Positions 46,701 to 64,000 of a DNA stretch of 64,000 bases are shown piece after piece. The DNA comes from Catajapyx aquilonaris (taxonomy: Eukaryota). Position 1 is the first letter of the stretch, and each line of letters begins with the position of its first letter. The translations under genes were made by a program, and so were the position numbers. The stretch is from contig KZ538070.1 of assembly GCA_000934665.2 (NCBI GenBank), positions 62,001 to 126,000 of the forward strand. Direction: 5' to 3'. Below the pieces are notes generated by a model that saw only the letters and a program-made list of their open reading frames with translations, had not been told where the DNA came from and ran no database searches.

Positions 46701-48007
46701 CCAACCGCTGTGCGTTGCGAGCAGTAGTGTTTGACTAACAAGGTGTGAGAGCATGTACTGATAGAGTTCGACAAGCGATCGAGTGTTTATTGACCAAACG
46801 AACGGCGTGCAGGTAATTGTTGGAAAAACTGGCCCCGATTTAGCTCCCTATGGCATGTTCCGGGAAACTTGAGCATGACTTGAACGAGAACGAGTCGCAA
46901 TTTGCATCAAATTATTTGTCATGTATGACATAATTTTTGTGCGCTTCCTCAATTAAACAGGTAGCATTGACACCATCGAATGACACCAACATTTGGCGAC
47001 ACCTCAACGCATATCGGGTGGGTCCTGCGTGTACCCGCTACAACCCGCACTACCCGCCCTCTTTTGTTTGCTCTCTAATTAGCTATTGGTCTTTGAAAGG
47101 CACGTGGGGCGGGTGGTAAGAGAAAATTGCCTTCGACCAAGTTGACACGTCAGAGAGAAGGGGGAAGGCTCGCGTGTGGAACAGTTTGCCGGACAATGGA
47201 ACCCGCCTGTGTCAACAACTGGACTTGCATGACCAGGTGTATACGCTTACCTTTGCAACCCCTCTCTGGAAATGGCATATCTTCCAGCGGTGTCGTCCTC
47301 CGTTATCAGCTGGCCAGGAAACGAGGTGATTAATTTACAGGCTGTAGGACAGGACAGGAGGACATGAACAAGCGGAATTGCATTTATAAACGGGGAACTG
47401 ACACGTACGGAAAACCCAAATTTTTGTAGTTCCCTGGTGGAGGGTTGACAGAACTATCGAGCACAAATATGGCGCCGTCTGCGGTCGTTAATAACAGCTA
47501 ATGCACTTTTTTTTTGACCGGTATTGTATTTTTTCCCCATGCCCCGGTGGCCTTTTTTTCCCCCTTCTGAAAAGCTTCCAGAAGATAAATGATGGGCATG
47601 ATTTTTCTTCCTTGTCGTGACTCGAAAATCTGTTTACTCATGGACACATCTCAAGATGTGTATTTTTGGGGGAGCTCCACATAATATATGGACAATCGAT
47701 CGTTAAGACACTGCCTTCCCCTAGTACTGTCAGACATGTCTGAATAATGCAGGGTGTACAGCAACATGCTGCAAAGTGTGCACCGTACGCGAAAATCAGG
47801 TTTGCGTGCGGAAATTTTTGCAAGCTCATGACGTTCCAGGTTAGTTGGCATGCAATGTAATTAATAGAATGTGCGTGGATGGAGGGGTTGAACCAAGGGG
47901 GGTAAAGAATTACTGTCGTCAACAGCATGGTAACACCGGTTCAATTGTGGCGACAACTGTCACCGTCACACATGTCCGGACCAATTAATTTCAAGTTATA
48001 TGTGGAC

Positions 48008-48750
48008 TTTCCGAGCATTCCCGGACTCTCCCGATGATCCCCGAACATTTCCGGACTCACCCAACATGGCCCGAGCATTCCAGGACTCTCTCGATGTGCC
48101 CAGAACATTTCCCGAACTCCTCCAAGCTTCCCTGAGCATTCCCGAAGTCTTTCGATGTGCCCCGAGCTTTCCAGGACTCTCCCGACGAACTCCGAGCATT
48201 TTACGAACTCCTCCGAGCACTTCCGGACTCTTCCGACATGACCCGAGCATTCCAAGACTCGCTCGATGTGCCCCGAGCATTTCCCGAACTCCTCCGAGCA
48301 CTTCCGGACTCTCCCGACATGGCCCGAACATTTCCCGAACTCCTCCGAGCTTCCCCGAGAATTCCCGTACTCTCCTGACATGGCCCGAACATTTCTGGAT
48401 TCTCTCGATGTGCCCCGAGCATTCCAGGATTCTCCCGACGATCTCCGAGCATTCCCCCCGAGAACTCCCGGACTCTCCCGACATGACCCGAGCCTTCCAA
48501 GACTCTCTCGATGTGTCCCGAGCATTTCCCGAACTCCTCCAAGCGTCCCTGAGCATTCCTGGAGTCTTTCGATGTGCCCCGAGCTTTCCAGGACTTTCCC
48601 GACGATCTCCGAGCATTTCCCGAACTCCTCCGAGCACTTCCGGACTCTCCCGACATGACCCGAGCCTTCCAAGACTCTCTCGATGTGTCCCGAGCATTTC
48701 GCGAACTCCTCCCAAGCTTCCCCGAGCATTCCCGGATTCACCCGATGTGG
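48008..48750. repeat. Complex satellite (ccgagcatt..cccgaactcct / ggactctcccgacatg units)
   Basis: Roughly 20-30-bp modules with a higher-order repeat (blocks at about 48111 and 48529). Confidence 0.93.
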
Positions 48751-51700
48751 TGCGAACGTCGCCGGAGTGGTCGCGTTCACTAATTTAACCCAAGGCTGAC
48801 CGTTTAATATATTTTTAAAAAAATAAACAAGCTGGCAGGTTCTTCAACCCTGACGGGTTGTCAATCTCGTAGGCCGCTGCCCCTTCCGCGTACACGCGAA
48901 AAACATTGCGAAAAACCCAGGGCGCGCTTTATATTCTGCCTGTTAATTAACCGGTGGGGGTGTGCTCAAGTGGGCGTAAAACTAGTGGGGAGGTTTTTTG
49001 AAACTCCTCCAGCAGCACGTGGTTTACGCGCATCTTTGTTTCATAGTCGTTCAAAAATATTAACAGCTCTCAGNGGGGGGGGGAGAGCTTTGAAATCGAT
49101 TCAAACTCTCATCATCATTTCAGGGGCCTTGGAAAAAAAATGTGTGTTGATAAAACTAGGGTTTGGCCCATTTAACTGGTGACATACATGGTTTTGTATT
49201 GGTTAGTTTTATTATTTAAGGCGGGATCATAAAATAAGGATTTTTGTGGCCTCGACTGGGGTGACCTATTCCTGCTTTCGTTTCGCCTTGGCTGATGTTG
49301 ACCCCCTTGTACAGGGTGTCTCAGCATGTTCATAGTTAGCATCTTTATGGTCAATAAAGCCACCCAAGCTTCTCACGCTACAAACCGCCATTTTTTTGCA
49401 CCCTAACCAGGCCAAAAAAAAGTAGGGGCGACATATACACCCCTTCTGTGTCTACTATGCATGGATCTTGAGAAAATGAAGGGGACTGGCTTTTGTAATT
49501 TCCTTGACTGGGAAAAGGAAATTTATAGTCTATAAAGATGCAAATTCTGTTCCTTTTTTTTGTGAAGGGGAAGGGGAGGGGAGGTTACCCCCACCACTGC
49601 CACCCTTAGCTTCATCACACACCCTCGGGTTAGCTTCAAACTCCTTTAGAAAGGCCCCTTTTAAAACGTTCAAAAAAATTTAGCTTCATACTTTTGTGAG
49701 ATTACCTAAATAATGCACTTACACGAGTAAAATGATGCACTTACCTCCATAAATAAATTCGCATACATAAATATAATCATGCACTTCCCTAAATAAATTA
49801 ATTCCCATAGCCGAACAACATTATGCACTGGTGTAAATAAATTTATCCTCATACATAACTTATGCCATACATCAATAAATTTATGCAGCAGCCTGAATAA
49901 ATTTATGCATCTTGGAATAAAATAGTGCACCAATTTATTATGAAATGGGCTAGAATGTTGAGAAAATTTTGTAAAGACTTGAAAATGTATGTGGGATAGG
50001 TGCCTGGGGTTAATATGGCTCGAATTTGGGCAGGGCGTAGCCACACCTTTTTACTGGCCCAAAAACCAGCGTTTAGCATTTCAAGTATGTGTGTGTGTGT
50101 GGAACACCCACAGTGTTGTTTACTGACATGGATGGATCCCCAGCAATTTCCAGCCTTAATAGGCGTAAAAATAGGGATTATTCAATGCTGAAATATTTAA
50201 AGCGTGAAGCTGACTCCAGAAAAAAAAAATGCGGACGAATTAAATTGCGCCTATTAACCCCTCACGAACCTGTAAAAAAAACTTTTAGTAAATCAAATTA
50301 CCGGCATTGCGATTAATTTACGGCCATAAAAAACAGTATGACGCCATTTTACCCAATTGACAGAAAATTAGATGAGGTCATTCTGGTCACCTCCCCAAAT
50401 TGACCCGACAGTGTTGCCAAACCGGTTTTATGCTAAAATTCGCGTCACGCGTCGGTGTGAAAGCGGGCACATTTTCTACTCGCGTTTTTTTTCTCTCTCT
50501 CTCTCTTTCTTTCTAAAGCGTGCGTGTGTTTGGTGGTTCGGAGCACGCGAGGCATCTTCTTTGGTTGGCTGGTCTTGACAACGCCGCCAGCAGGGGTGGG
50601 AGAAACACGCACCAAAAAAAAAATGGTGCGTTCAGAATGGAATTTGTGGAGTTTTCGTCTGGGAATAAAAAATATATATATAAAAGGTGTCGAGTCATAT
50701 CTTCTGGAAGGGAAGATCATGCGTGGTTGCCAGTTGGATTAAAGATGGCGGCCATCAGTCCGGACTAAAAATGGCTGCCGCCACGTGCTAGCCTCTAATC
50801 CAGGCGGCGTGGAAGCAACCTAGCCGCGTATACTTTTCTTTGGCGACGAAGCCGTGGGAGCGAGTCATTTGGAACCCCGGAGCCTCCTCCATCGCCACTT
50901 AAAACGTCATAAAGTCTCATTTGGTGTCGTCTCCTCCGCCGCTTCCCAGGACGACCACCGTAAAATCCATCTTTTCGCCAACTGGAGGAATTATGTCTGA
51001 TTCCAAGCCTTGTTTCTGAGCTGGGGGGAGGCTAAGAAGGATGTAAAGCGTTGTAACGGCGGCCGGCGCTTCCAATATTTAGGGAAAAGCAAGCGGGGAG
51101 GGCGCCTCGGGAACACCGAGAGTTATGGAGATGGCGGCCTGGTTACGACTTGGGCTTCTGGGCTGGTAATAGTTGGGGTAACTGATGCCAACAATGCCTG
51201 GAGCCACGGAACAAAAATGGATGCCAGTTGCAACCGCCATTTTTGATCCAGACTATGGTTGGCAGTTGTATCGGACTAAAAATGGCGGGCGCATAGCCCC
51301 AAGTGTAAGTGTATCTGACATGGTTCGAGACTTTGCTAATGAAATGGGGGGGTGCACAAAGGGCGTCAAAGTGAGGCCCACGGCCATATTGGATGATGGA
51401 TGACGTGAACAGCAGGAAGCTACATGGTTTAACCCTCCCCTCCAAAAATATGGCGTTTGTTTAGGAAAAGGAGCCACAATTTTGTGGCTAATTTTTTGTG
51501 TGTTGGGGAAGGGGTAATTTTTTTTAACGATCCTTGTGGGAGGTAATTATCAGAAACCAGCTGGTTTGTTCAGTGATAGTACCGATTTATTGAAAAAATA
51601 TAAACCAGACAGGATATGGCTGACATCAAGCGTGTCCGAACCCCTCTCTTGAAGGAGTCTCGACATGCCGGGCACGCTTCCTGAACCACGTCCTCGGGAA

Positions 51701-52024
51701 GCCGCGGCTTGCCCCCCTTTAAAAAAAAACAGAAAGACTCCCCGACACGGTACCTCCATGTTCTGTCCGGAATGAGAAAGCAAGGAATGGACCGTACAAA
51801 TTAGGTCGCTTGCGATCCGGAGCCTCAATATCCCCCATCGCAGCCACCGGATTTCGGAAGCCGTTTGCCGCATCCGTGGTTAGATTTCGGGGGCTTTCGC
51901 ATCTTGGTATTACCCCCCACAGCTAGGCATATCCACGCAATATGGACGATACCAGGCTGGCAGTACTCAAAATGGTACTTGGGACTCGCAATATTCCGGT
52001 TTAGAGTCTCAATATGGCTGGTTG

Positions 52025-52258
52025 TAGTGTGATTGGTGAGAGCTGCAAGATGGCGGCCTCCATGTGGGGTTTCATTGGAGTTTCAATATGGCGGCCACTA
52101 GAGCTGCAAGATGGCGGCCATGTGATTGGTCAGGAGTTGTAAGATGGCGGCCTCCATGTGGGGTTTCATTGGAGTTTCAATATGGCGGCCACTAGAGCTG
52201 CAATATGTCGGCCACTATGCTGTGATTGGTCAGGAGTTGTAAGATGGCGGCTTCCATG
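52025..52258. repeat. Tandem repeat rich in (c)aagatggcggc abutting the RBL exon acceptor
   Basis: About 7 copies of aagatggcggc/aatatggcggc. Confidence 0.88.
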
Positions 52259-52282
52259 TTAATTTTTTTGGTTTTTTTCCAG

Positions 52283-52475
52283 AGCGGCCGAGATACCGTA
52301 CGGCGTACGCCTGCGAGGGCTCCACCTTGCGGCTGGAGTGTGAGCCCGGAGCCCTGATCCAGCTCATCCGAGCCAATTACGGCCGCTTCTCCATCACCAT
52401 CTGCAACGAGCACGGTAACACCGACTGGAGCGTCAACTGTATGTCGCCAAGATCGCTCCGGGTCCTGCACGGCAG
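52283..52475 (+). CDS. Cirl: RBL/SUEL lectin N-terminal half ([65 protein letters not shown])
   Basis: Acceptor ttttttccag, donor ag|gtgagc; 193 nt, phase 1 to 2; carries the SUEL ANYGR motif and Cys pattern typical of insect Cirl. Confidence 0.96.
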
Positions 52476-54027
52476 GTGAGCCCTCTGGCGCCGGTGTATG
52501 GCAACTCAAAAAAAGGGGGGGCCTGCGCAAGGATCTAAATTTCANGGATTTTTCAGAATTTTCAAAAATTGGGGGGGTAGTTATTGATCTACTTATGCAG
52601 ACCCCTAGGGCCATCCGTATCGATGGGGGATCTGATGGTGAATGACTACCCCCCACAACCGGTGCTGGAGTTAGTGTGTTGTAATTTTTTCTGTCATGTT
52701 ATTACCGATTCTGTTGCTTCGCTTCACAATTTAATTGCGGGCTGTTTTGGGCCTGTCTGTTTCGTAGCTCCCCATGCACAATGAAGCGACAGGATCGATA
52801 CCTGGATACATGTGGCCACATTGTCTATACCCAGTGGTCAGCTTTCAGTACCCCTCAAAATTTTAACCCTGGCGTAACATAACCCCTAGCTTTTTGGACA
52901 AAAACCGCATGTACTAACTAACAAGTGGTCTCAAGCAGGTTTTCCACAGAAAAAAAGACTTAAGTGCAATTTTTGCACCGATTTTTTTTTTTTCCTGTAG
53001 GTATTGGTATACATACCCGAAACATACCCACAGCCAAGTGGCTCCAGAAGAACCGCGGGGGAAAAAAATCCATTTCTTTTTTCCGGACTTTTTCCGGGGG
53101 AAAGTCCCGGAGCGTGAAAATGGCTCGTTAGGACTGTCTGCGGCCAAAAAGTATTGTGCCGGGTTGAATGAAATCCGTTTGATGGCAGCTCTTCTCTTCT
53201 TCTTGGGAGCTTTTTTTTTTGTGAACGCTATCCGGGGAGAATCACGCCCGGAGAAGAATCCGGAGCAATCCAACCTCCCTCCAAGATGAATCTCCTTTTG
53301 CCAATAACGGAAAAGCAGTAGAGAAAGCCGTTCTGCAAATACGAAATGAGTCTTGGATTTTCTGTGTGATCCGGATTCAAAATGGACGATCCGGGCACTG
53401 CCAGACACGGTCAGCCTCCTGTAAAGATAGACAGCAGACGGCAGGTGTTGGCGCTCAAGCTGCTCAGGCACATCTTTGCATCTGCCCATGCTTAAAGATT
53501 TTTCCGCAACATGTTCCGCACCATTGTACCCCCATCATGGCCATACACACACACAAAAAAAAAATACCGGTACTGGGTTTGAGCCAAAGGTGCAAAGGTG
53601 CTGCCTCTTGCCCGATGCTAATTCAGTTACAAGTCCTGTGAGAGCTAGGAAAAAATAGAGATGCAATTTCGTAGAACCACCTGCTGCTGCCTGGGACCAG
53701 TTGTCGCCTTCAATATGGAGACATTTCTTTTTTTTTAATCAGGAGGTTTCGTGGGGGTTGGCAGAAGGTACCGTTGTCTTCGCTCTTCGAATGGCACGTA
53801 TTGTGATGTAAATGAAGACGGAATATGAAACGGAGCCTTCAGGGGTCGGTTGAAAAGAATCATCCGGGCTTAAGCCACTTTTCCACAGGTTGAGTGCTTC
53901 CGACTGACAGTCTCAAAGAAAAGCAAGAAGCACTGTCTTAACCCAGTTCGGTTCAAAAAGCTTTTAGGCCCCATATTCGACGATCCGGACCTTCAAGGGG
54001 ACGGACAAAGGAATATACTTGAATCTA

Positions 54028-54390
54028 TCAGCCAATCACGCGTCTGGTACCCCAGAAGTGGCTCTTAGCCAATCACATAGCGGTCGGTATAGGCAGTAGC
54101 CAATCACGCGTCGTGTACCCCCCCAGAAGTCGCTCTTAGCCAATCAGGTAGCGTGTACCTTGTAGCCGGTATAGACAGTAGCCAATCACGCATCGTGTAC
54201 CCCCCCCCCCCNCCCCCCCCCCAGAAGTCGCTCTTAGCCAATCAGGTAGCTTGTAACTTGTAGTCGGTATAGGCAGTAGCCAATCACGCGTCGTGTACCC
54301 CCCAGAAGTCGCTCTTAGCCAATCAGGTAGCTTGTACCTTGTAGCCAATCACATATCGGCCGGTATATGCAGTAGCCAATCACATAGCGT
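54028..54390 (+). repeat. Minisatellite with 10 AGCCAATCA cores
   Basis: Units ccagaagtcgctcttagccaatcagg..ggcagtagccaatcacgcgtcgtgtaccc. Confidence 0.9.
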
Positions 54391-55285
54391 GTATCTCGGA
54401 TAAACGTGCTTGAGACCATGTTCTTGTCAAATCCTGCAACTGTATGTCCCCTACCCATATGCCCTTTACAATGTTGGTACCCTTGCATGAAAAGGATTAC
54501 TATATCTGACCCTTGGGAAGTTTTTTTTGCACACATTTTCCGACCCCTGCAGAATCTACCCCCAAATTTTCTCTGTCCTGAAGAATGTTGACATATAACT
54601 CGGACCGGGGAATGCGTTATTCCCAAAAGCATTACTGGTTGACCCCTTCTGCACTGGACACCAAGCAGTCACTCTGCTTGGAAGCAAGGAGTTATTTTTC
54701 CCTGAACAACCATTATGGTCGAAATATTATGGCCTTTTTCTGTTTATTTTCAACCCCCCCTCTCTCTTGCTATATTTCCTGTGGCTCAGAGGCGGACCAC
54801 TCTGATGCTACGAAATTTGAAAAAAAGAAACACCCTGTACCTTGGCTTTATGTTTTTTTTTTTTCTGTTTCCATGTTCTGTGTGTGCTTTCGTTGTTTGT
54901 TGTGTACCATTTTTTCATGGTTAGGAAAGAGTGTGAGGGCTATTAAGACGCCTTTTTTCACACTAGTAGATGGTGTCATATTACCAAGTCGTCTCAATCT
55001 TTTTGGTCGATATAGTGCCCACAAGATGTTCCTGTGCATGGGGGGAACTGTTGTGTATGGGGTTGGGTTCAAACATGGGCAGGGGTTGGAAGCACCAGCT
55101 GTGGATCCCAGCTGCAGATGAGGGGGGGAAATCCTTGGGAATAAGCTAACAAAATGTGCTCAATACTTTTTTGCAATTTAAATCTATGAAAGCACAGTTC
55201 TTTTAGTTTCTTTTTTTTAAAGTTATTGGCTTCCTATTTTTCCCCATTTTTTAGTTTTCCTTTTTTTTCCAACCGTTATTTCCAG

Positions 55286-55392
55286 ATGTCATACCATGTC
55301 CAGCTGCAGTGTGGAGGTTACCAGTGATGATTTTGGGGATCCGTGTCCCGGCACCCATAAATACATAGAAGTGCATTATTCCTGTGCGATAG
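55286..55392 (+). CDS. Cirl: RBL C-terminal half, alternative exon A ([35 protein letters not shown])
   Basis: Long polypyrimidine tract then tttccag acceptor; donor ag|gttggt; 107 nt, phase 2 to 1; intact DPC.GT.KY motif. Confidence 0.88.
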
Positions 55393-56074
55393 GTTGGTTT
55401 CCATTTTTTTGCCTCTTTAAGGAGCCGGGAATTTTTTTGGGGGGAAAAAGTGGTTTGGATGTGGGCAACCTTCAGCTTTTGCTGTGAAAAAGCAGTGAAG
55501 CAAATCGCAGCTTGAGGAAGCACACATCCTAACCTGTTCTTTTTTTTCCAACTTCCCAGCTTCTTCGTTATAGGATTATAGGAGGAGGGGTCCGGCATTG
55601 TTGCGGGTAAGTCCGGACTCACCTATCGGCGTGCTGCAAGAAAATGACCCAAATTTGTACAGCGTTAAAAACCTGGCAACAACACCTGCCCCCAAAAGCT
55701 TCCCGACCTTTCAACTAGATGCCGCTCGGCTCCGACCGCCTTTGTTTCCCCCCTCCTGCCTGACCACCTCCCCAGCATTTCCACCACCTCACAGAAGGAG
55801 GCGGAGGGCCATCGACCTTCAGAAGTTGGCTCTGAGCGAGGTCAGCTCTTTTTTGGAGGCTACTCCCGTTCATACCCACCCCCCTATTTCCAGCCCCTTC
55901 CGCCAGATGGCAGCACCTCCTTGTTGTCGATGGGTAAACGCGCCCGTAGCGACCAAACCCGGAACTATACCCGGGAAATTTGAAAATTTTGCAGCACGCC
56001 CCTCCGAAATTAGTTTTAAGTGTTGTGAGGGGGGAACGCAACCAAAAAAAAAATGTTTGGGTTTTTATCACCAG

Positions 56075-56181
56075 ATGTAGCCAACAGCAGAACTGCAGCA
56101 TCATTGCGACCACCAGTACGTTTGGTGATCCCTGTCCAGGTACTCTCAAGTACCTGGAAGCTCATTACCAATGCACACCAG
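56075..56181 (+). CDS. Cirl: RBL C-terminal half, alternative exon B ([35 protein letters not shown])
   Basis: Acceptor tttttatcaccag, donor ag|gtatga; 107 nt, phase 2 to 1; intact DPC.GT.KY motif. Confidence 0.92.
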
Positions 56182-56814
56182 GTATGACAATCACTCTTAG
56201 AGGTGCCAGTTGTAAAATGTAATGTTGGGCCACCCCCGACTTGTCCAGCCGGAGGAGGAATATATGGGTAGATAACAATGTTGGAAAAAAATGGCAGTTT
56301 CTGACACAACAATGCAATCACTCCGGTGGGGGATAAAAGCCAGAAAATGATGTTCTGTGTTGTTAAGAGCGTGTTGACCAACTGTGCAGATTTACGATGA
56401 CAGGCTTTAGTTTTTTTTTTCCTGGTTGTGACAAGTTGTAGCACTTGTCCTTTCCACTGGTCAAGAGAAAACTAGTAGACCTTGCGGTTGGGAGGGGGGA
56501 CAAGTTTGGATGGTGACCGCCGGCTTTGCCTGCTAAATTTAACTGTACTGTGAGACACCTACAAGCTGGTTGAGTAGGTGAGGAAGCACTTGAAGACACA
56601 TGCATGCCAGCCGGGGATTAATAAGCTGCTGAATAATGGGCCGCCTCGTAGTTATATTTCTGATTTGTAAATGAAGCATTAATATGTGCCTTGCTGTCCT
56701 CAGTTAGTTAACAAATGAGGCGGCCGTAGGACTTGTAGATGCAATTTGATCATCCTGATGGTTACAACATCTTGTAAAGAGCTAGAAGTGACCTCTTGTT
56801 GTTGTTTTATCCAG

Positions 56815-57530
56815 CCACGAGCAGCACGACCACCAGGCCGCGGCCGCCGTGGCTACTCAGCACAGATCCGAGTCTCTGGAGCACTGCCAAACCTGCCACC
56901 CTCCGGCCGCTACCAGGAGGTGCCAACACTACCGGGTACTTGGATTCAAGCACCACGGTGGCCTCCAGCAGCGCCGGATTCAGCAGCACTGCCGCAACTA
57001 CCACTGCCAGTACCACGACCACCACGACCACCACCACGACAACCCCTCCTCCCATCAAGGTGGTGCCACCCCGTCCAAAAGACTGGGAAGGTGGGAGGGA
57101 CAGGGAGAGTCCAGTGCATGTGTGGGAGACCACGCAAGGCATGGTGGCAGTGTCCGCCACCAGCACAACATCCACCACCAGTCCATCCACCACTACGGTC
57201 ACTGGTGACCCTCCAACCCCGAGGGTCCCAATGGCAACGTCATCCTCTCCGCAGCAGTGGGACGAAGCACGTCCAATGCCGCAGCACTGTGGTCCCACGG
57301 AGACCAGAGGTTTGTTCTGGAACTACACCCGGAGTGGAGAGGTGGCGGTGCAGCCATGCCCAGGCGGTGCAACAGGGTTCGCAAGGTGGAGGTGTGGGGG
57401 TAGTGACCCGGCCTCATGGGTTAGGCCGGCACCAGACCTGTCCGAGTGCAAGTCTGTGTGGCTCACCAGCCTAGAAACCAGGATACTAGAGGGGGACTCG
57501 ATCATCAGCATCTCCAATGACTTGCTCCAG
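56815..57530 (+). CDS. Cirl: Ser/Thr/Pro-rich stalk, hormone-receptor motif (HRM) and start of GAIN
   Basis: Within ORF 56796..57590; HRM HCGPTETRGLFWNYTRSGEVAVQPCPGGATGFARWRC..PDLSEC; acceptor ttttatccag, donor cag|gtaaga; 716 nt, phase 1 to 0. Confidence 0.95.
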
Positions 57531-57611
57531 GTAAGAGGATGTACCATGCTGCCACTACTCACATGCCTTTCTCACTTGGCTGGAAATTAACTTTTCATCT
57601 TATTACCACAG

Positions 57612-57939
57612 GTGACAAGCAGCAAGACCCTCTATGGTGGGGACATGCTGGCGACAGCCACCATCATAAAGCGGTTGGCAGAGAAGATGAACTCGGACCT
57701 GCAGACATTCCCGGACCCACTCCAGAGGGAGGCCATAATCACAGAGCTCCTCCAGAGTGTGGTCCAGACGGGCAGCAACCTCTTGGACAATCCTAGGCAT
57801 GCACCATGGAGAGATCTAGGATACGATGAGCAGATGAGGGTGGCCACTGCACTTCTCATTGGCCTGGAGGAAAACGCTTTTCTGCTTGCTGAAACTGTTG
57901 GGCGGGAGAAAACCGTCCTGCAGGCTGTCAAGAATATAT
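57612..57939 (+). CDS. Cirl: GAIN subdomain A ([33 protein letters not shown])
   Basis: Acceptor accacag, donor t|gtacgt; 328 nt, phase 0 to 1. Confidence 0.93.
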
Positions 57940-58057
57940 GTACGTGTTGCAAATGGTTTCAGATGCTTTTGCAAATTTTGTTAAATTTTTCGCGAGTGAT
58001 AACGTGTGCTGGAGTTTAACTGTCTAATTTTAAGTTTGCAACATTCTCTCTTTTCAG

Positions 58058-58478
58058 TGGCAACGGTGAAGGTAGTGGAGACCCGAAACATCCAGGAAGT
58101 GCGATTCCCACCAGCAGCTGCATTGGAACTGTGGGACTCAGCGGACAACAGCTTAGTCCTCCCTGCAGAGGCTCTTTTGGAGAACAGTGACAATGGCTTG
58201 GTTCGTTTGGTTTTCTTTGCATACAACAACATGGAGGAGGTGCTCCAGCCCCATCCGGATGTGGCGGGTGGGACGGGATTGGTGTATGCAGAGAACAAGG
58301 ACTTCCTGCAGAATGGAAGGTACAACGGCACACGCATACTCAACAGCAAGGTGATCTCTGCCTCACTGGGGAAAGGAAGGCACATTCAGCTTCCCGAGCC
58401 TGTGCTCATCACCTTCAGGCACATACGGACAGAGAATGTCAGTAATCCCTCCTGTGTCTTCTGGGATTACACCATGAG
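58058..58478 (+). CDS. Cirl: GAIN subdomain B to start of GPS (..LNSKVISASLGKGRHIQLPEPV..NPSCVFWDY)
   Basis: Acceptor ctcttttcag, donor ag|gtaagc; 421 nt, phase 1 to 2. Confidence 0.95.
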
Positions 58479-58732
58479 GTAAGCAGAGAGGCAACAGGTG
58501 CCCTAACAATTCAAATTATGGAGGATATATCTGTTTATATGGATAATGTATTGTGAAAATGCACACGTAATCTGCTTTCAACCCACCAGTCATAAGTGTC
58601 AGTCTTTGTGAAATCACATTCTGAATATTTTCTAGCCTAGTTGAATCACAACTGTCAGTATCTGTATTAACCTACGGAAAAGGGTTGGAGTTTGGTGGAT
58701 TTTGAATAATGGCATCGGCCTTTTTATTTCAG

Positions 58733-58958
58733 TTCATGGTCCGAAGAAGGTTGCCAAGTGCTGGGGACGAACCACACGCACACCAGCTGTATGTGCGACC
58801 ACCTGACCAACTTCGCCATACTGATGGACGTCCATGCCGTGCAAGTGCCCCTGCCACATGAGCTTGCCCTCTCTGTGATCACTTATGTTGGATGTGTGGT
58901 TTCTATCATATGTCTCGTCCTGGCAATATGTACTTTCCAGTTCTTCAGAGGACTCAAG
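58733..58958 (+). CDS. Cirl: GPS with HL|T autoproteolysis site, Stachel (TNFAILMDV) and TM1
   Basis: SWSEEGC..CMCDHLTNFAILMDV..LSVITYVGCVVSIICLVLAICTFQFFRGLK; acceptor tttatttcag, donor aag|gtagat; 226 nt, phase 2 to 0. Confidence 0.96.
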
Positions 58959-59320
58959 GTAGATACACTCTGGGATCTTGGACACAATTTTGTTTATTTT
59001 TCCAAGTCTCTCCTCCCTCCCCTAAACTAATCCGATCGAGTGTTTCCCCCTAATGGAAGGAGACATTAATATTTAATGTGGGTTTTTTGGCTTTGTTGTT
59101 TAAGCTAGATATATTTTTTTGTGGCATCGAGTCATCAAAATTTGCCTGACGAAACAATAATTTAAAAATCAGGATAGAGTTAACAATATTTTTTGGAGAG
59201 GAGAAGAAGCCTCAGACTATGTTCATTCAATGCTACTGCTGATTTGCATGGACATTTTTTGAAAATGTGACTAAAATGGACTCTTCCCCCCTGCCCCCCT
59301 GTTCCCGATTTGGTTTTCAG

Positions 59321-59486
59321 TCTGATCGCACCACTATCCATAAAAATTTGTGCCTGTGCCTCCTTATTGCCGAAGTGCTCTTCTTAGCCGGGATTGGTCA
59401 GACTGACAAGCCAATCTTGTGTGGCATTGTGGCTGGATTGCTGCATTTCTTTTTCCTGTGTGCTTTTGCATGGATGTTTCTCGAAG
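59321..59486 (+). CDS. Cirl: TM2-TM3 ([32 protein letters not shown])
   Basis: Family-B GPCR motifs; acceptor ttttcag, donor g|gttagt; 166 nt, phase 0 to 1. Confidence 0.96.
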
Positions 59487-59619
59487 GTTAGTGCCAGTCC
59501 ATCCGTTTTTATGTAAGTGTTTACACGGGCGGGGTTTGACGCAAGAAAAAAAAAAGACATAGTCTGGCTTCATTTCTGCATATGTAAAGCATTTTGGGGG
59601 ACCATTTCTCTCTCGACAG

Positions 59620-59834
59620 GTTTCCAGTTGTATGTCATGTTGATAGAAGTGTTTGAGGCGGAAAAGTCCAGGGTACGGTGGTACTACGCCATTGCTTATG
59701 GCGTTCCTACCATCATTGTGGCCGTGTCTGCCGTGGTGGACCCTTTCAGTTATGGCACTGAGCGCTACTGCTGGCTGAGGGCAGATAACTTCTTCATCTT
59801 TAGTTTTGTGGGACCAGTCATTACTGTGATACTA
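59620..59834 (+). CDS. Cirl: End of TM3, TM4, ECL2 (YCWL), start of TM5
   Basis: GFQLYVMLIEVFEAEKSR..YGTERYCWL..SFVGPV; donor cta|gtgagt; 215 nt, phase 1 to 0. Confidence 0.96.
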
Positions 59835-59909
59835 GTGAGTACCCATTCGTCATTTTACACTTTTTTCACTTTGAGCAAGTTGTAACACAAATCTTCTTTC
59901 TCGTTGCAG

Positions 59910-60013
59910 GCTAATCTAGTCTTCTTGAGCATGGCCATTTACATGATGTGCCGCCATGCCAATGCCTCTGCCACCATGAAGAACAAGGAGCAATCGCGTC
60001 TTGCCACGGCCAG
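59910..60013 (+). CDS. Cirl: End of TM5 and ICL3 (ANLVFLSMAIYMMCRHANASATMKNKEQSRLATA)
   Basis: Acceptor gttgcag, donor ag|gtactc; 104 nt, phase 0 to 2. Confidence 0.93.
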
Positions 60014-60776
60014 GTACTCATTCTTTGCCGTCTTCTACCTCGGTGGGCTGCAGGCCTCATGGGTGTTGGTAGAGTTGTCTTTTAACCAGGGATGGTGCTC
60101 AAACTCTTTGAGGTCTCCTCTACCATTAGATTTGGCATTGACATTCATTGGTGTAAATCCTCCTTTTGTTCATACTATCAGACATTCCTGTATTTCAAGT
60201 ACTCTTGGAAGATATGAAGATATGCTTATTTGCACATTAATTGCTCAATACTTCATGTAACTGAATTTGGTTTATTTTTAACACAACTTAATTTCATTAT
60301 TGCAAGTATGGTACTGCTATTTTACATGGAATGTGAAGTCCAACATCAAATTGAAATTCTGATCTTTCACCAAATAGTATTTGAAATGTTTTCCACTAGT
60401 CCGCAGTTTGCAGTTCCATATGTATCGTCAGTACCCATACTTGTGACTGCTGCCTAATGACACCCTTATATTGCACAGAACAGAAATCGTCGTATCTGTT
60501 TCAATGGAAATGTCACCTCAGGTTTATGTGTACATTTGTGTACTCTTGGCCACACATGACAGTGAAGTGATGAGGCAAGTGTGTGAGAGCATGTGTGACA
60601 TTCCATCAATACAGATATGAGCTGATTTTTGTTCCTTGCGGTATTTACATGTATGGTTGAGCACTGCTGGTTTAAAGTGCATGGACACAAAGTACATTTG
60701 CACATAAAACACCGTAGATTTGATGGAGTCTTGTGGTTGTGGGACTAACCTGTATTTTCTTGTTTTGCATGACTAG

Positions 60777-60821
60777 TGGGAAGGAGGAGAATGCCCTTCA
60801 GTCAAAGTTGAGGTCACATTT
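60777..60821 (+). CDS. Cirl: 45-nt in-frame ICL3 cassette exon (S-GKEENALQSKLRSH-L)
   Basis: Canonical branch point gactaac (60743-60749), polypyrimidine tract, tag acceptor, donor tt|gtaagc; phase 2 to 2, no stop. Not in the ORF track. Confidence 0.75.
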
Positions 60822-61028
60822 GTAAGCCAGTTTCCTTAATATTATTTTCTCCCCTGCAAAACTACCTCCAGTTTTTAAGTTTGATCTCTTTCTGTTTTTT
60901 CCTATCGCTCACCACTCCCATCCAAAAGTAGCAAGCACAACATGGCTTTTAGCAAGTAGCATTGCTCCAGCCATAGTGATCCGAGAGTGAGAGAGTACTC
61001 CCTAATAGCGTGCTGTTTTGCTTTGCAG

Positions 61029-61197
61029 GACATGGCTGCGTGGCGCAATAATTCTTGTGTTCCTCCTGGGCCTTACGTGGACCTTTGGCCTGCTGTACTT
61101 GAACGAACAGTCAATGGTCATGGCCTATGTATTCACAGTGTTGAATAGTTTGCAAGGCCTCTTTATTTTTGTTTTCCACTGTGTTCAGAATGAGAAG
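61029..61197 (+). CDS. Cirl: TM6-TM7 ([38 protein letters not shown])
   Basis: Acceptor ctttgcag, donor aag|gtaaga; 169 nt, phase 2 to 0. Confidence 0.96.
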
Positions 61198-61954
61198 GTA
61201 AGATCATTTGTGGGCTCCACACCTACCTTGTTATAGAGGCAGGGCTCTCCCTTTGTTGTTTTTTCAGTCTCATTTTTAAACTTGTACATAGTTTGAAAAG
61301 GGGGGGATGGAATAGGTTTAAGGCTGGATTGTAATGGCTGAAATAATAAAGAGATGAGCAAAAGAAATTCCCTGAGATGATTTATTTCATCTGTGCAGAG
61401 GAATTGACAGCGGTTTCCCCCCATGCAATTGGCCTTTCTTTTTTCGATTTATCCCTTACAGATGTCGCGACAAGAGTTATCACTGTGCGGCACAAACTGG
61501 ATGTTTGTGCAGCACCGTTTTAGCTCTTGATGCGACATCTGTCCCCATGCAGTTGAGTTATGAGTTGTCTCAGGGAATTTTTATTTGGTCTTTTCTGTTT
61601 TCACGTTTTTGTGCTTTGTGTTCGTACAGTTTTAAGTTACAGTCGAACTTCCATCCTTTGAATCACAATTTCTTTACAGTTATGATGCACACGTTTTCTT
61701 TGTCCTTGACTTGGCCCGAAGAAACTCAACCAATTTTTCTGCGCCTTTTTAGACATTGTTGTTGCTGGACAACTTAATGAGATATGATCAGATAGTCTCA
61801 TTCAGTTTCCATCGACCATCAATGCTGAAAACTGCTAAGAGAAATTTCTCAAGTTTCACTAAGCCAAGCTTAGATCAAATTTTGATTCTGGAAGTTCGAG
61901 TGTATTTGTTCCTTCTTTTTATTTTATTTTCCCTCCTCGCCTGGACCATTGCAG

Positions 61955-62378
61955 GTGCGCAAAGAGTACCGCAAGTTTGCCCGCAGGCACCCGTGGCTCC
62001 CAGCCTGCCTGCAGGGCGCCAGCAAATCCTCCCCTGGAGGGAAGGACCGGCGGAGATCCAGTCTCTACGCAGGGTCCAATGGCACCCCCTCTGCTCCAAA
62101 CTCCCATAGCTCTGCCTGCAGCTCTACTGTCACTCCAGCAGGCGGCTCAAGCGTGGGTACCACAGTCGTTCAGTTGATCCCCACGCCCTCCCCTTCTCCG
62201 CCTCTACCCCACCCGCATCCGCACTCTCCCCAGCACCCCCACCTCCACCAGCACCACTATCACCCCTACCACTCCCACCACCATCCGCCGCCTCCTCCCC
62301 AGCAGCATCACTACGGCAACCCAAGCCCGCGGCCTAGCGAGAATTACTGCAGTCGTTGCAACCATTGTAAAGCGCAAG
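61955..62378 (+). CDS. Cirl: Helix 8 and proximal tail (VRKEYRK..); short form ends 62152, long His/Pro-rich form ends 62378
   Basis: Acceptor attgcag; candidate donors agc|gtgggt (62153, phase 0) and aag|gtacat (62379, phase 1). Read-through stops at 62384-62386. Confidence 0.8.
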
Positions 62379-63017
62379 GTACATGATAAGTTTTGTAACC
62401 CTCCCTTGGCTCCCTGTATTTCTTCCGGGCGGTGTGTGGTGCTGGTGGAGGTCGGAGGTCGACATTTAAAAGGCAATTGGGTTGCTTTGGTGGTGCTGGG
62501 TTAGAGGTTTCTTCTAATGCTTACCTGTATGCACTAATTCCCCGCAACATTGTCGGTAGCTCAACATCACCATGTAGACGTATAGAGAATCTGAGCTTGT
62601 CGTCAAGTTGTGAGAGAAAAACTGTGCTGTGCAGTATTAGAGGATGAATGTTAGCATAATTATATGCCGCATAATTTTTTGATTGAGTGTCATAGACCAA
62701 GGTTCATATATTGAAGAATATTTGGCTGGTTATTAGTGGCAAGTGATCTAAAAGTGACTGGAACAAAATAATGAACACACTCTTGCAAGAAATACCCAGT
62801 ATCTTAGATTTCCATTGAAACAGACTGATCAAGTTGTACGGCAAATGGCCATTACTTATTGTCAGAAATTCCGTAATTTGAAGCCGTAAAGGTGATTTAG
62901 GCTGTTAATCTAGTTACGATCTGCCTAGTACTGGTTACAGAAGTTTCATAAAATCTTATTGTCCAGGTCACCTACATTTCTAGGCTTTACTCACCACAAT
63001 CCATTTTGTTTCGTCAG

Positions 63018-63097
63018 AGCAGGAGTGTCCCTGCAATCAGAAGAACTGGCTGACAGTGCATGGCATTAAAATGCCATCTTTGCATTATTTTATGCAT
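63018..63097 (+). CDS. Cirl: Putative 80-nt tail exon (E-QECPCNQKNWLTVHGIKMPSLHYFMH)
   Basis: Acceptor ttttgtttcgtcag, donor cat|gtaagc; open frame; phase 1 to 0 exactly bridges donor 62379 to acceptor 63547. Confidence 0.45.
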
Positions 63098-63547
63098 GTA
63101 AGCGTACAAGGTTTAAAAAATTTTGTATGCATGTAATTTAACCTCCAAATTTTTGCTCATTCCCGAAATGGTTTGTCAGGCAATACATTACCTGAAGCGT
63201 ATCATATTGAGAGGCTGAGTATGAGTTTGTTGTTTCTTTTGTTGGGTGGAGTGTTAGAGAGAGTTTTCCATAAATGTTGCATAACAAAAGTGCATTTTTG
63301 GGCCCGAAGCAGCTTTCAGTAACAGATAATATAAACAATTGCCAAGTGTCAGTTACAGAAAAAATTACAAATAATTATGCTGTAATTGTACAGGACAAAT
63401 GGCCAAGTTTTTAAATTAAAAATGGTTTCGATTTGCAAACCTGTAAGTTGCGCTGGTCTTCCTTCACCTGTCCGGAACCTATCTGTGCTTATAAAATGTG
63501 TATCTTGTATGTTTTAGGCATAACTTTTATCCCTCTGTCCCCTTCAG

Positions 63548-63802
63548 CTGCAGCGTGTGTGGGGGAGCACCCGGAGCAGCATGCGCACCAGCCGCAGCAA
63601 CCCAGGGCGGGTGGGCAGCAGCCCAGCTGCACAGCTGCCAACTCCTCAGCAAGGAGGGCAGCTCCCCCACCAGGCCCACCTCGTCCACACCCTTCGCACG
63701 GGGGGAGTGGCGGGGGCAACGGGGGGCCAGGGAGTGGGGGTGGCTCTGGCTCTAGGGGCGGGCCAAGGGCTCCCATCCACGCTCAACGACCAGGAAGTTG
63801 AG
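63548..63802 (+). CDS. Cirl: Intracellular tail exon (LQRVWGSTRSSMRTSRSNPG..LNDQEVE)
   Basis: Acceptor tgtccccttcag, donor gag|gtcagt; 255 nt, phase 0 to 0. Confidence 0.75.
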
Positions 63803-63884
63803 GTCAGTTTTCTGATTGAGACCCCACGCATGTGCACACATGTAAGCAAATGGTCCATGCATAAATGCCTTCTTTTCCTTGCAG

Positions 63885-64000
63885 AACTCATCATTCAAGT
63901 CATACAGCCGTGACTCTGGTAACGGCGGTTCAGAGCAGGAGGACTCCCCTAGGGCAGTCGCCTCAGGGGCTGGCCCAGGAGCAGCTGGTGTCGGGTCCAC
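63885..64000 (+). CDS. Cirl: Tail exon, truncated by window end (NSSFKSYSRDSGNGGSEQEDSPR..)
   Basis: Acceptor cttttccttgcag; open frame; SYSRDSG.GGSEQEDSPR resembles insect Cirl tails as I recall them (not verified by search). Confidence 0.8.

Follow-up and report, generated by a model that had tools for sequence, protein, structure and literature searches.

Can splicing exchange one version of half a lectin domain for another in an arthropod latrophilin, and what would such an exchange do? The question is raised by a stretch of 64,000 nucleotides (nt) from Catajapyx aquilonaris (GenBank assembly GCA_000934665.2, contig KZ538070.1, positions 62,001 to 126,000 of the forward strand; hereafter the window, in whose coordinates all positions are given). 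From approximately 52.3 kb to the window end, the + strand carries the adhesion G-protein-coupled receptor (GPCR) gene Cirl, or latrophilin (ADGRL). An earlier examination of the letters alone (the sequence-only reading) had proposed that two tandem exons, termed A and B here, are mutually exclusive and swap the C-terminal half of the RBL/SUEL lectin domain. That structural proposal has good support, most of it comparative: isoform pairs known from other insects, the placement of exon A within a clade of A-type exons, and a splice joint of exon B in RNA from a relative. The pair is probably the local copy of an old, conserved two-member cluster of mutually exclusive exons in insect Cirl. The elements of the locus are the following:

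55286–55392, + strand: exon A, 107 nt, alternative C-terminal half of the lectin domain, of an acidic, fast-evolving type
56075–56181, + strand: exon B, 107 nt, alternative C-terminal half of the lectin domain, of a strongly conserved default type
55393–56074, + strand: intron separating exons A and B, 682 nt, GT..AG
52283–52475, + strand: constitutive exon encoding the N-terminal half of the RBL/SUEL lectin domain, with cysteines 1–4, the motifs ACEG and ANYGR, and loop1 (Pfam SUEL_Lectin positions 1–43 of 80)
56815–57530, + strand: constitutive exon encoding a Ser/Thr/Pro-rich linker and the hormone-receptor motif (HRM; Pfam HRM 30.9 bits, cut-off 26.2)
57612–64000, + strand: later Cirl exons encoding the GAIN domain, GPS, the seven-transmembrane (7TM) domain and the start of the C-terminal tail, in a gene that runs past the window end (tblastn, Pfam and RNA joints)

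Exons A and B occupy one slot, between the exon ending at 52475 and the exon starting at 56815, with nothing coding between them. The constitutive upstream exon ends in the donor GGCAG/gtgagc (the slash marks the exon border), its last 2 nt forming part of a codon, and the downstream exon opens after the acceptor tatccag/CCACG. Exon A is bordered by the acceptor ttccag/ATGT and the donor GATAG/gttggt, exon B by caccag/ATGT and ACCAG/gtatga, and both have the same phases, completing a codon of which 2 nt lie upstream and ending on the first nt of another. The translations, CHTMSSC...HYSCAI for A and CSQQQNC...HYQCTP for B, each contain four cysteines and the motif DPCPGT.KY. The two exons share 59 of 107 nt and 18 of 35 residues and match each other reciprocally by tblastn (E 2e-12). 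No third copy was found by tblastn across the 64-kb window, where the next best match has an E of 0.04–0.09, so the likeness of A and B is far above chance. In tandem position, phase, length and homology, the two exons thus have the sequence features of a mutually exclusive pair, and the paralogous exons of 107 nt that the sequence-only reading had described, with equal phase, valid splice sites, all cysteines and the motif, are borne out by sequence and translations.

Inclusion of either exon between its neighbours leaves the frame without a stop. Because 107 is not a multiple of three, inclusion or skipping of both leads to a premature stop in the next exon: the exon at 56815–57530 houses the first stop after joint inclusion (57472) as well as the first stop after skipping of both (57206). 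Exclusivity is therefore enforced at least by the reading frame, just as had been claimed from the letters. The out-of-frame mRNAs, with stops upstream of many later junctions, should undergo nonsense-mediated decay. Three other mechanisms of exclusion were rejected: steric hindrance, as the 682-nt intron is too long; U2/U12 incompatibility, as all sites are ordinary GT–AG sites of the U2 type; and docking/selector pairing, for which no duplex signal was found, the inverted repeats being mostly A/T-rich or repeat-like. One inverted repeat of 29 nt, 72% complementary, pairs 52554–52582 (80 nt after the constant exon) with 55963–55991 (approximately 85 nt before exon B); were the two arms to pair, exon A would be looped out, yet they resemble copies of one repeat, and the duplex scans gave no signal for them. 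The splice sites of the two exons differ in an opposed manner: exon A has a strong polypyrimidine acceptor and a weak donor (TAG/gttggt) that departs from consensus at +3 and +4, and exon B shows the reverse, with a weaker acceptor than that of A and a stronger donor (CAG/gtatga). Judged from the sites themselves, this arrangement fits regulated exons.

The identity of the host gene is firm. The constitutive lectin exon is 82–87% identical to insect and crustacean Cirl, and a search with it returned 437 Cirl-like proteins, which are latrophilin Cirl wherever they are named. The later exons, mapped by tblastn with four orthologues, by Pfam on open reading frame (ORF) pieces and by GT..AG joints in RNA contigs, give GAIN matches of 71 and 39 bits, a GPS match of 47 bits, and 7tm_2 in four exon pieces (profile positions 3–250). 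The orthologue exon matches are colinear with the gene, and the best whole-gene matches are Periplaneta and Zootermopsis Cirl (approximately 66% identity over approximately 960 aligned residues). The locus is thus orthologous to insect Cirl and has the order lectin domain, HRM, GAIN/GPS and 7TM.

Whether such a pair is annotated in related arthropods had been left open by the sequence-only reading; it is, widely, in RefSeq models. Of the 437 matches, 120 were listed, and 30 clusters were opened for isoform pairs; an A-type second half is present in 14 of the 120 cluster representatives. In Periplaneta americana, isoforms X2 (XP_069693678.1) and X1 (XP_069693670.1), of 1440 residues each, differ at 16 positions, all within residues 94–127, and in Zootermopsis nevadensis the 18 differences between X2 (XP_021940474.1) and X1 (XP_021940473.1) all lie within residues 110–143. 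The differences between Tribolium castaneum X3 (XP_064215503.1) and X1 (XP_015835038.2) are confined to alignment columns 96–129, with A one codon shorter than B, and those between Anoplophora glabripennis X2 (XP_018565679.1) and X1 (XP_018565678.1) fall only in the 34–35 residues that follow the RBL helix. Of eight more beetle pairs, seven are of equal length and differ within one 34-residue span; in the eighth, from Onthophagus, the two isoforms differ in length by one residue. A pair is likewise found in Bemisia tabaci (XP_018896103.1 and XP_072161347.1), a species with seven A and three B isoforms, and both types occur in nine of ten further clusters, the exception being Cryptotermes. Annotated pairs are present in two Blattodea, in Bemisia and in more than 15 beetles, approximately 20 insects in all. 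Both exon types therefore have conserved counterparts in other insects, which was the cross-species check that had been asked of each.

The order of the two exons is also the same where it can be read directly. A-type followed by B-type sequence is present in one reading frame or model in Cotesia (P0153) and in two short beetle contigs (P0155 from ENA and P0162 from Logan), as in the window. The Cotesia congregata model carries both halves in one protein, probably through an annotation error. A lengthened A-type profile search mostly returned multi-domain rhamnose lectins and added Cotesia, Anthonomus and the two tandem contigs; no candidate came from a region search that used the A isoform of the cockroach, probably as the index covers cluster representatives only.

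These entries bear on the idea that exon A serves mainly in unproductive or truncating splicing, such that joint inclusion with B leads to decay and lowers Cirl output, or read-through gives a short, secreted, lectin-only protein. The stop at 57472 after joint inclusion would suit the first route. For the second, the short A-type entries P0005 (147 residues), P0006 (135 residues) and P0031 (156 residues) pass from the constant half into exon A and stop 1–23 residues into intron-like sequence after A, and read-through of the exon A donor in the window adds a 31-residue tail before a stop (ORF 55221–55487). Similar read-through fragments, however, follow exon B and the constant exon, and so have the look of sequence from unspliced or genomic contigs. 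Gene models of approximately 20 species include a full-length A isoform, and in a Photinus UniRef entry of 1283 residues the A-type half is spliced to the linker; A0A1Y1... entries such as this one derive from a transcriptome. A conserved A peptide, with its cysteines and co-varying core residues (below), would be needless in a poison exon. We regard this explanation as very improbable.

The A-type exons form a lineage of their own, to which exon A of the window belongs. In a tree of 47 rows and 35 columns (supports given as ultrafast bootstrap/SH-aLRT, the Shimodaira–Hasegawa-like approximate likelihood-ratio test), all 19 true A-type rows form one clade (92/91), with the window A exon inside it, grouping with the A exons of Periplaneta, Zootermopsis and the spittlebug Clastoptera (88/93). 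The window B exon lies among near-identical B exons. The position of the A clade beside dipteran B exons (support 83–86) probably reflects a shared His24. Window A shares 24 of 35 residues with Periplaneta A versus 18 of 35 with its own B, and window B shares 31 of 35 with the B exons of Periplaneta and Zootermopsis. Between species, mean identity over 36 pairs is 58% for A and 81% for B, A evolving the faster.

Several positions mark the two types. Columns 10, 11, 14 and 27 are type-specific, and window A carries the A-type residues E10, V11, D14 and I27. At position 11, 31 of 34 A exons have V or I versus A in all 52 B exons; at position 27, 26 of 34 have I versus L in 52 of 52. The greater acidity of A noted from the window alone (net charge −4 for exon A, −1 for exon B) proves to be conserved across species, with a mean net charge of −2.32 over 34 distinct A sequences versus −0.52 over 52 distinct B sequences. 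The glycosylation difference noted beside it fares less well: the N-C-S sequon is indeed in exon B alone of the window's pair, but this is no rule, since 20 of the 34 distinct A-type exons carry N-C-S/T versus 49 of the 52 B exons.

RNA evidence comes from one public metatranscriptome run, which contains 0.06 of the words and whose contigs were compared with 52000–64000. The run derives from a relative rather than from the same species, the constant exon, which its RNA also covers, differing at 14 of 192 letters. A contig of 765 nt skips exon A: its 52475-to-56075 joint has GT..AG ends, a depth of 21.5 and a shorter side of 110 nt. The junction of 56181 with 56815 appears in two contigs, with short sides of 23–25 nt, and downstream joints, such as 57530 to 57612, confirm the exon map. 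In the relative's contig, exon B (56072–56181) differs from the window at 1 of 110 letters, against the 14 of 192 in the constant exon (52281–52472). Going by these letters, the low divergence of exon B could reflect extra constraint at the nucleotide level. Divergence among the later exons of another contig ranges from 0 of 166 to 26 of 112, so that a mixed or chimeric assembly is possible. The relative's contig also extends a further 462 letters 5' of 52281, unmatched on 52000–64000.

A number of observations weigh against a conserved cluster with both members in use. The A clade falls short of the starred support level, and the tree has only 35 columns. One tree row labelled A (from P0162) is a B exon, and the approximately unbiased (AU) test (p 0.397) was run on the set with that row. 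Tribolium A resembles window B (61.8%) about as much as it does window A (58.8%). The RefSeq pairs are mostly automatic, predicted models. Among the isoforms listed, and in annotation rather than genomes, the A type was seen in 0 of 30 from decapods and a stomatopod, and was not seen in Odonata, Orthoptera, Phasmatodea or Heteroptera, in the planthoppers and leafhoppers Nilaparvata, Macrosteles and Lycorma, in the bee Megachile, or in mosquitoes, Bradysia and Cryptotermes. Such patchy occurrence may mean that the exon is frequently lost or merely unannotated. No exon A joint is among those listed from the relative's single run, where the bin with exon A has a mean depth of 0.79, although contigs cannot show absence. 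Eight duplex scans, each against 60 shuffles, gave no signal of docking/selector pairing (absolute z at most 1.6).

Two further points concern the distribution of the types. The A type was likewise not seen, in annotation, in the Lepidoptera and Trichoptera representatives listed, and the dipteran proteins retrieved are all B-type. Dating the duplication relative to the crustaceans by the tree was attempted but is not trusted, given the 35 columns and the AU set with the mislabelled row.

Taken to its extreme, this side of the evidence would make exon A an unused relic in this species, intact by chance or through recent disuse, with B alone spliced in. The sole RNA contig across the region skips A, the A donor is off consensus at +3 and +4, and many insect orders are without an annotated A isoform. 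Yet exon A keeps an intact frame, four cysteines, the DPCPGT.KY motif, both splice sites and a strong polypyrimidine tract; it has 24 of 35 residues in common with cockroach A, in a gene that is as a whole approximately 66% identical to cockroach Cirl; it carries the four A-type diagnostic residues; and a lone contig, from a single run of a relative, is no proof of absence. A relic is accordingly unlikely, although less so than a role in unproductive splicing, and a retained two-exon cluster remains the preferred account.

What the exchange would alter can be read from the lectin fold. Exons A and B each singly match Pfam SUEL_Lectin positions 47–80 of 80 (38.5 bits, cut-off 31.4), and alignment gives good support to a swap that would replace the C-terminal 42% or so of the RBL/SUEL lectin domain. 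Residues were mapped by aligning the insect Cirl lectin domain with the mouse Lphn1 RBL domain (Protein Data Bank (PDB) entry 2jx9), in the numbering of Vakonakis et al. (PMC2430599). In this alignment, the swapped piece spans the equivalent of Cys96 to two residues beyond that of Cys128, and has residues aligned to C96, C102, C115, G117, K120 and C128. It comprises the end of helix a2, the a2–b4 linker with the C96–C102 disulfide, strand b4, loop2 and strand b5. In the mouse domain, the disulfides are C41–C71, C50–C128, C83–C115 and C96–C102; strand b4 pairs with b2, b5 lies between b1 and b3, and loop2 packs on loop1; loop2 (residues 106–120, the PDPCPG loop) forms the rhamnose pocket with G117 and K120 (PMC2430599). 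The eight-cysteine pattern is present in Cirl, four of the eight in the constant exon and four in each of A and B. The alignment predicts one internal disulfide within the swapped piece, and pairing of its Cys115 and Cys128 with Cys83 and Cys50, respectively, in the constant half. The sugar-pocket residues are present in both forms, E42 and Y63 in the constant exon (ACEG and ANYGR) and G-T-x-K-Y in A and B, and on this basis the two forms look equally sugar-competent.

Predicted structures agree that the fold is kept. AlphaFold models of an A-type (P0005) and a B-type (P0117) protein from other insects have an identical order of elements (b1, b2, b3, loop1, a2, b4, loop2, b5). The A-type model has a predicted local distance difference test (pLDDT) value of 80–91 across the swapped part and matches the LAT-1 and LPHN lectin domains (8suf, 6vhh, 8djg and 2jx9) with template modelling (TM) scores of 0.75–0.83, normalised to the target. 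The acidic residues of exon A in the window, E10, D14 and D15, lie on and after b4. Positions 11 and 27 co-vary, V11/I27 in A versus A11/L27 in B, and look like coupled changes of the core.

The sequence-only reading had gone further, to a splice switch with two states that would select between teneurins and Toll-family receptors as ligands. As an idea this stands as reasonable: the lectin domain binds teneurin in vertebrates (PMC7195488) and TOL-1 in Caenorhabditis elegans (bioRxiv 2023.05.04.539414), the acidic residues of the A type are conserved, and the fast evolution of A is as expected of a surface that tracks a variable partner. It is somewhat weakened by where the known contacts lie and by the sequon difference, which is not conserved. 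For LPHN3–TEN2, the lectin residues named are S38, R44, D49, D67 and the C36–C66 disulfide (PMC7195488); for LAT-1–TOL-1, they are F69 and D79 on a 24-residue long loop, within an interface of 1412 Å2 (bioRxiv 2023.05.04.539414). If C36–C66 is taken as mouse C41–C71, our own mapping places all of the LPHN3 residues before residue 96, and the sole numbering offset that fits both F69 and D79 in the 8suf alignment places them in the GRF motif and loop1, in the constant exon. The named teneurin and TOL-1 contacts thus appear to map outside the swapped piece, to the constant N-terminal half, which counts against the functional step of the proposal. Part of the A/B difference, moreover, is buried core co-variation rather than surface, and the pairing of invertebrate latrophilins with teneurins has been argued to be doubtful (PMC6422961). 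Indirect or secondary effects of the swap are nevertheless plausible, because b4 adjoins b2, loop2 packs on loop1 and the TOL-1 interface is large: by our mapping, the LPHN3 contacts R44 and D49 flank b2, with which the swapped b4 pairs, and loop1, against which loop2 packs, is the TOL-1-contacting loop. A teneurin/Toll switch is therefore a tentative suggestion, with perhaps a minority of the weight.

A broader version is about equally tentative, namely that the A/B choice may be an ancient binary selector of the extracellular partner of Cirl, already present in the last common ancestor of cockroaches, bugs, beetles and wasps, if not earlier, with the ultra-conserved B face serving a conserved ligand and the acidic, fast-evolving A face a rapidly changing one (for example, a Toll branch or a glycan-bearing partner). 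Were this true, loss of A in Diptera would explain why fly genetics missed this form of latrophilin regulation.

Under the preferred account of a conserved exon cluster, the constant exon 52283–52475 would be spliced to A or B and then to 56815, such that each productive mRNA would encode one complete RBL/SUEL lectin domain. B would be the strongly constrained default form and A the faster-evolving, acidic one. Exon A would be included in this species, and the choice would presumably be regulated by tissue or stage. It may alter the binding surface, most likely the exposed face of the b2–b4 sheet and the rim of loop2, and the altered surface would then adjust affinity or the choice of partner, leaving in place the main published teneurin and Toll contacts of the constant half.

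Other features of the locus stand apart from the exon pair or accompany it. Exon B contains a short inverted repeat:

56135–56158, + strand: perfect hairpin in exon B, 10 bp with a 4-nt loop, across the codons for PGTLKYLE (inverted repeat I5)

The fold of exon B has an energy of −31.3 kcal/mol (z −2.85, 1 of 200 shuffles as good) and that of exon A is nothing unusual (z +1.89); Rfam gave no match in the window. Further downstream, the relative's run shows two RNA routes, 60013 to 61029 directly, or 60013 to 60777 and 60821 to 61029, with sides of 26–28 nt, which implies an optional exon of 45 nt at approximately 60777–60821 in the 7TM-coding part. Upstream, a tandem array at 47934–48843, with periods of 30, 81 and 172 nt, has stop-free frames on both strands (284 and 300 residues); the products are of low complexity and rich in Pro, Ser and Arg. 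The array is probably an intronic satellite and not a gene. The acceptor of the constant lectin exon lies 24 nt beyond the end of a 94-nt tandem repeat (2.4 copies, 52028–52259), the intron preceding exon A contains a 98-nt repeat (1.9 copies, 54118–54303), and a single N at 52545, in the intron just past the constant exon, is an assembly ambiguity that leaves the exons unaffected. Over 1–47000, G exceeds C on the + strand nearly throughout (GC skew 0.03–0.18 in 2-kb windows, except at 4–6 kb). No Cirl exon was found there by tblastn, and the signal-peptide exon is absent from the mapped part; the skew is possibly the trace of a long, transcribed first intron.

The exon choice itself is known, in that it sits in the automatic annotation of approximately 20 insects, but it has seemingly escaped examination. 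In the full-text literature, a search that left subscription journals and supplements outside, we found no description of alternative exons inside the Cirl/latrophilin lectin domain, and no paper discussing any of the RefSeq A/B isoform pairs; the texts consulted include the latrophilin reviews PMC6629964 and PMC6422961, a 2026 review of adhesion GPCRs (PMC13197933) and a paper on the cockroach brain transcriptome. In invertebrate latrophilins the lectin domain is the chief module for adhesion, and which ligands these receptors bind physiologically in insects is still debated. A natural, conserved exchange of b4–loop2–b5 provides two ready-made versions of the domain that could be compared in binding screens and removed separately in Tribolium or cockroach. 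Drosophila, apparently of the B type only, may not be representative of insects in the biology of Cirl. Annotators should model A and B as alternatives, never both together as seemingly in the Cotesia model.

Splicing is known to alter other latrophilins. For Drosophila Cirl, eight transcripts have been described, differing by an N-terminally truncated 'RBLneo', a 4-residue deletion in GAIN and retention of intron 6 (bioRxiv 2023.01.11.521585). They belong to the same gene family and likewise alter the extracellular or membrane architecture; the accessible text of that report, however, mentions no A/B exchange in the RBL domain. In vertebrate latrophilins, teneurin binding is modulated by splice site SSA, an insert of 4–5 residues located between Lec and Olf (PMC7195488, PMC6629964). 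SSA too affects the N-terminal adhesion region through alternative splicing, but as a cassette micro-exon in a linker rather than an exchange of half a lectin fold, and insect Cirl is without an Olf domain. The closest counterparts are the RefSeq insect Cirl pairs, which share with the window the gene, the slot and the two exon types, window A being nearest to cockroach and termite A exons and window B to B exons; they differ in that Tribolium A is one codon shorter than B, and the window exons are both 107 nt. The half-Ig exons of Dscam1 are the textbook arthropod cluster of mutually exclusive exons that swaps half of an extracellular binding domain. As in clusters of the Dscam1 type, the Cirl exons are tandem, duplicated and phase-matched, and one per mRNA would replace part of a cell-surface recognition domain; unlike them, the Cirl pair has two variants only, with no docking/selector pairing detected, and the frame alone suffices for exclusivity. 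The feature is thus a further case of a familiar class, the mutually exclusive exons of arthropods, ordinary in kind and of moderate interest for adhesion-GPCR biology.

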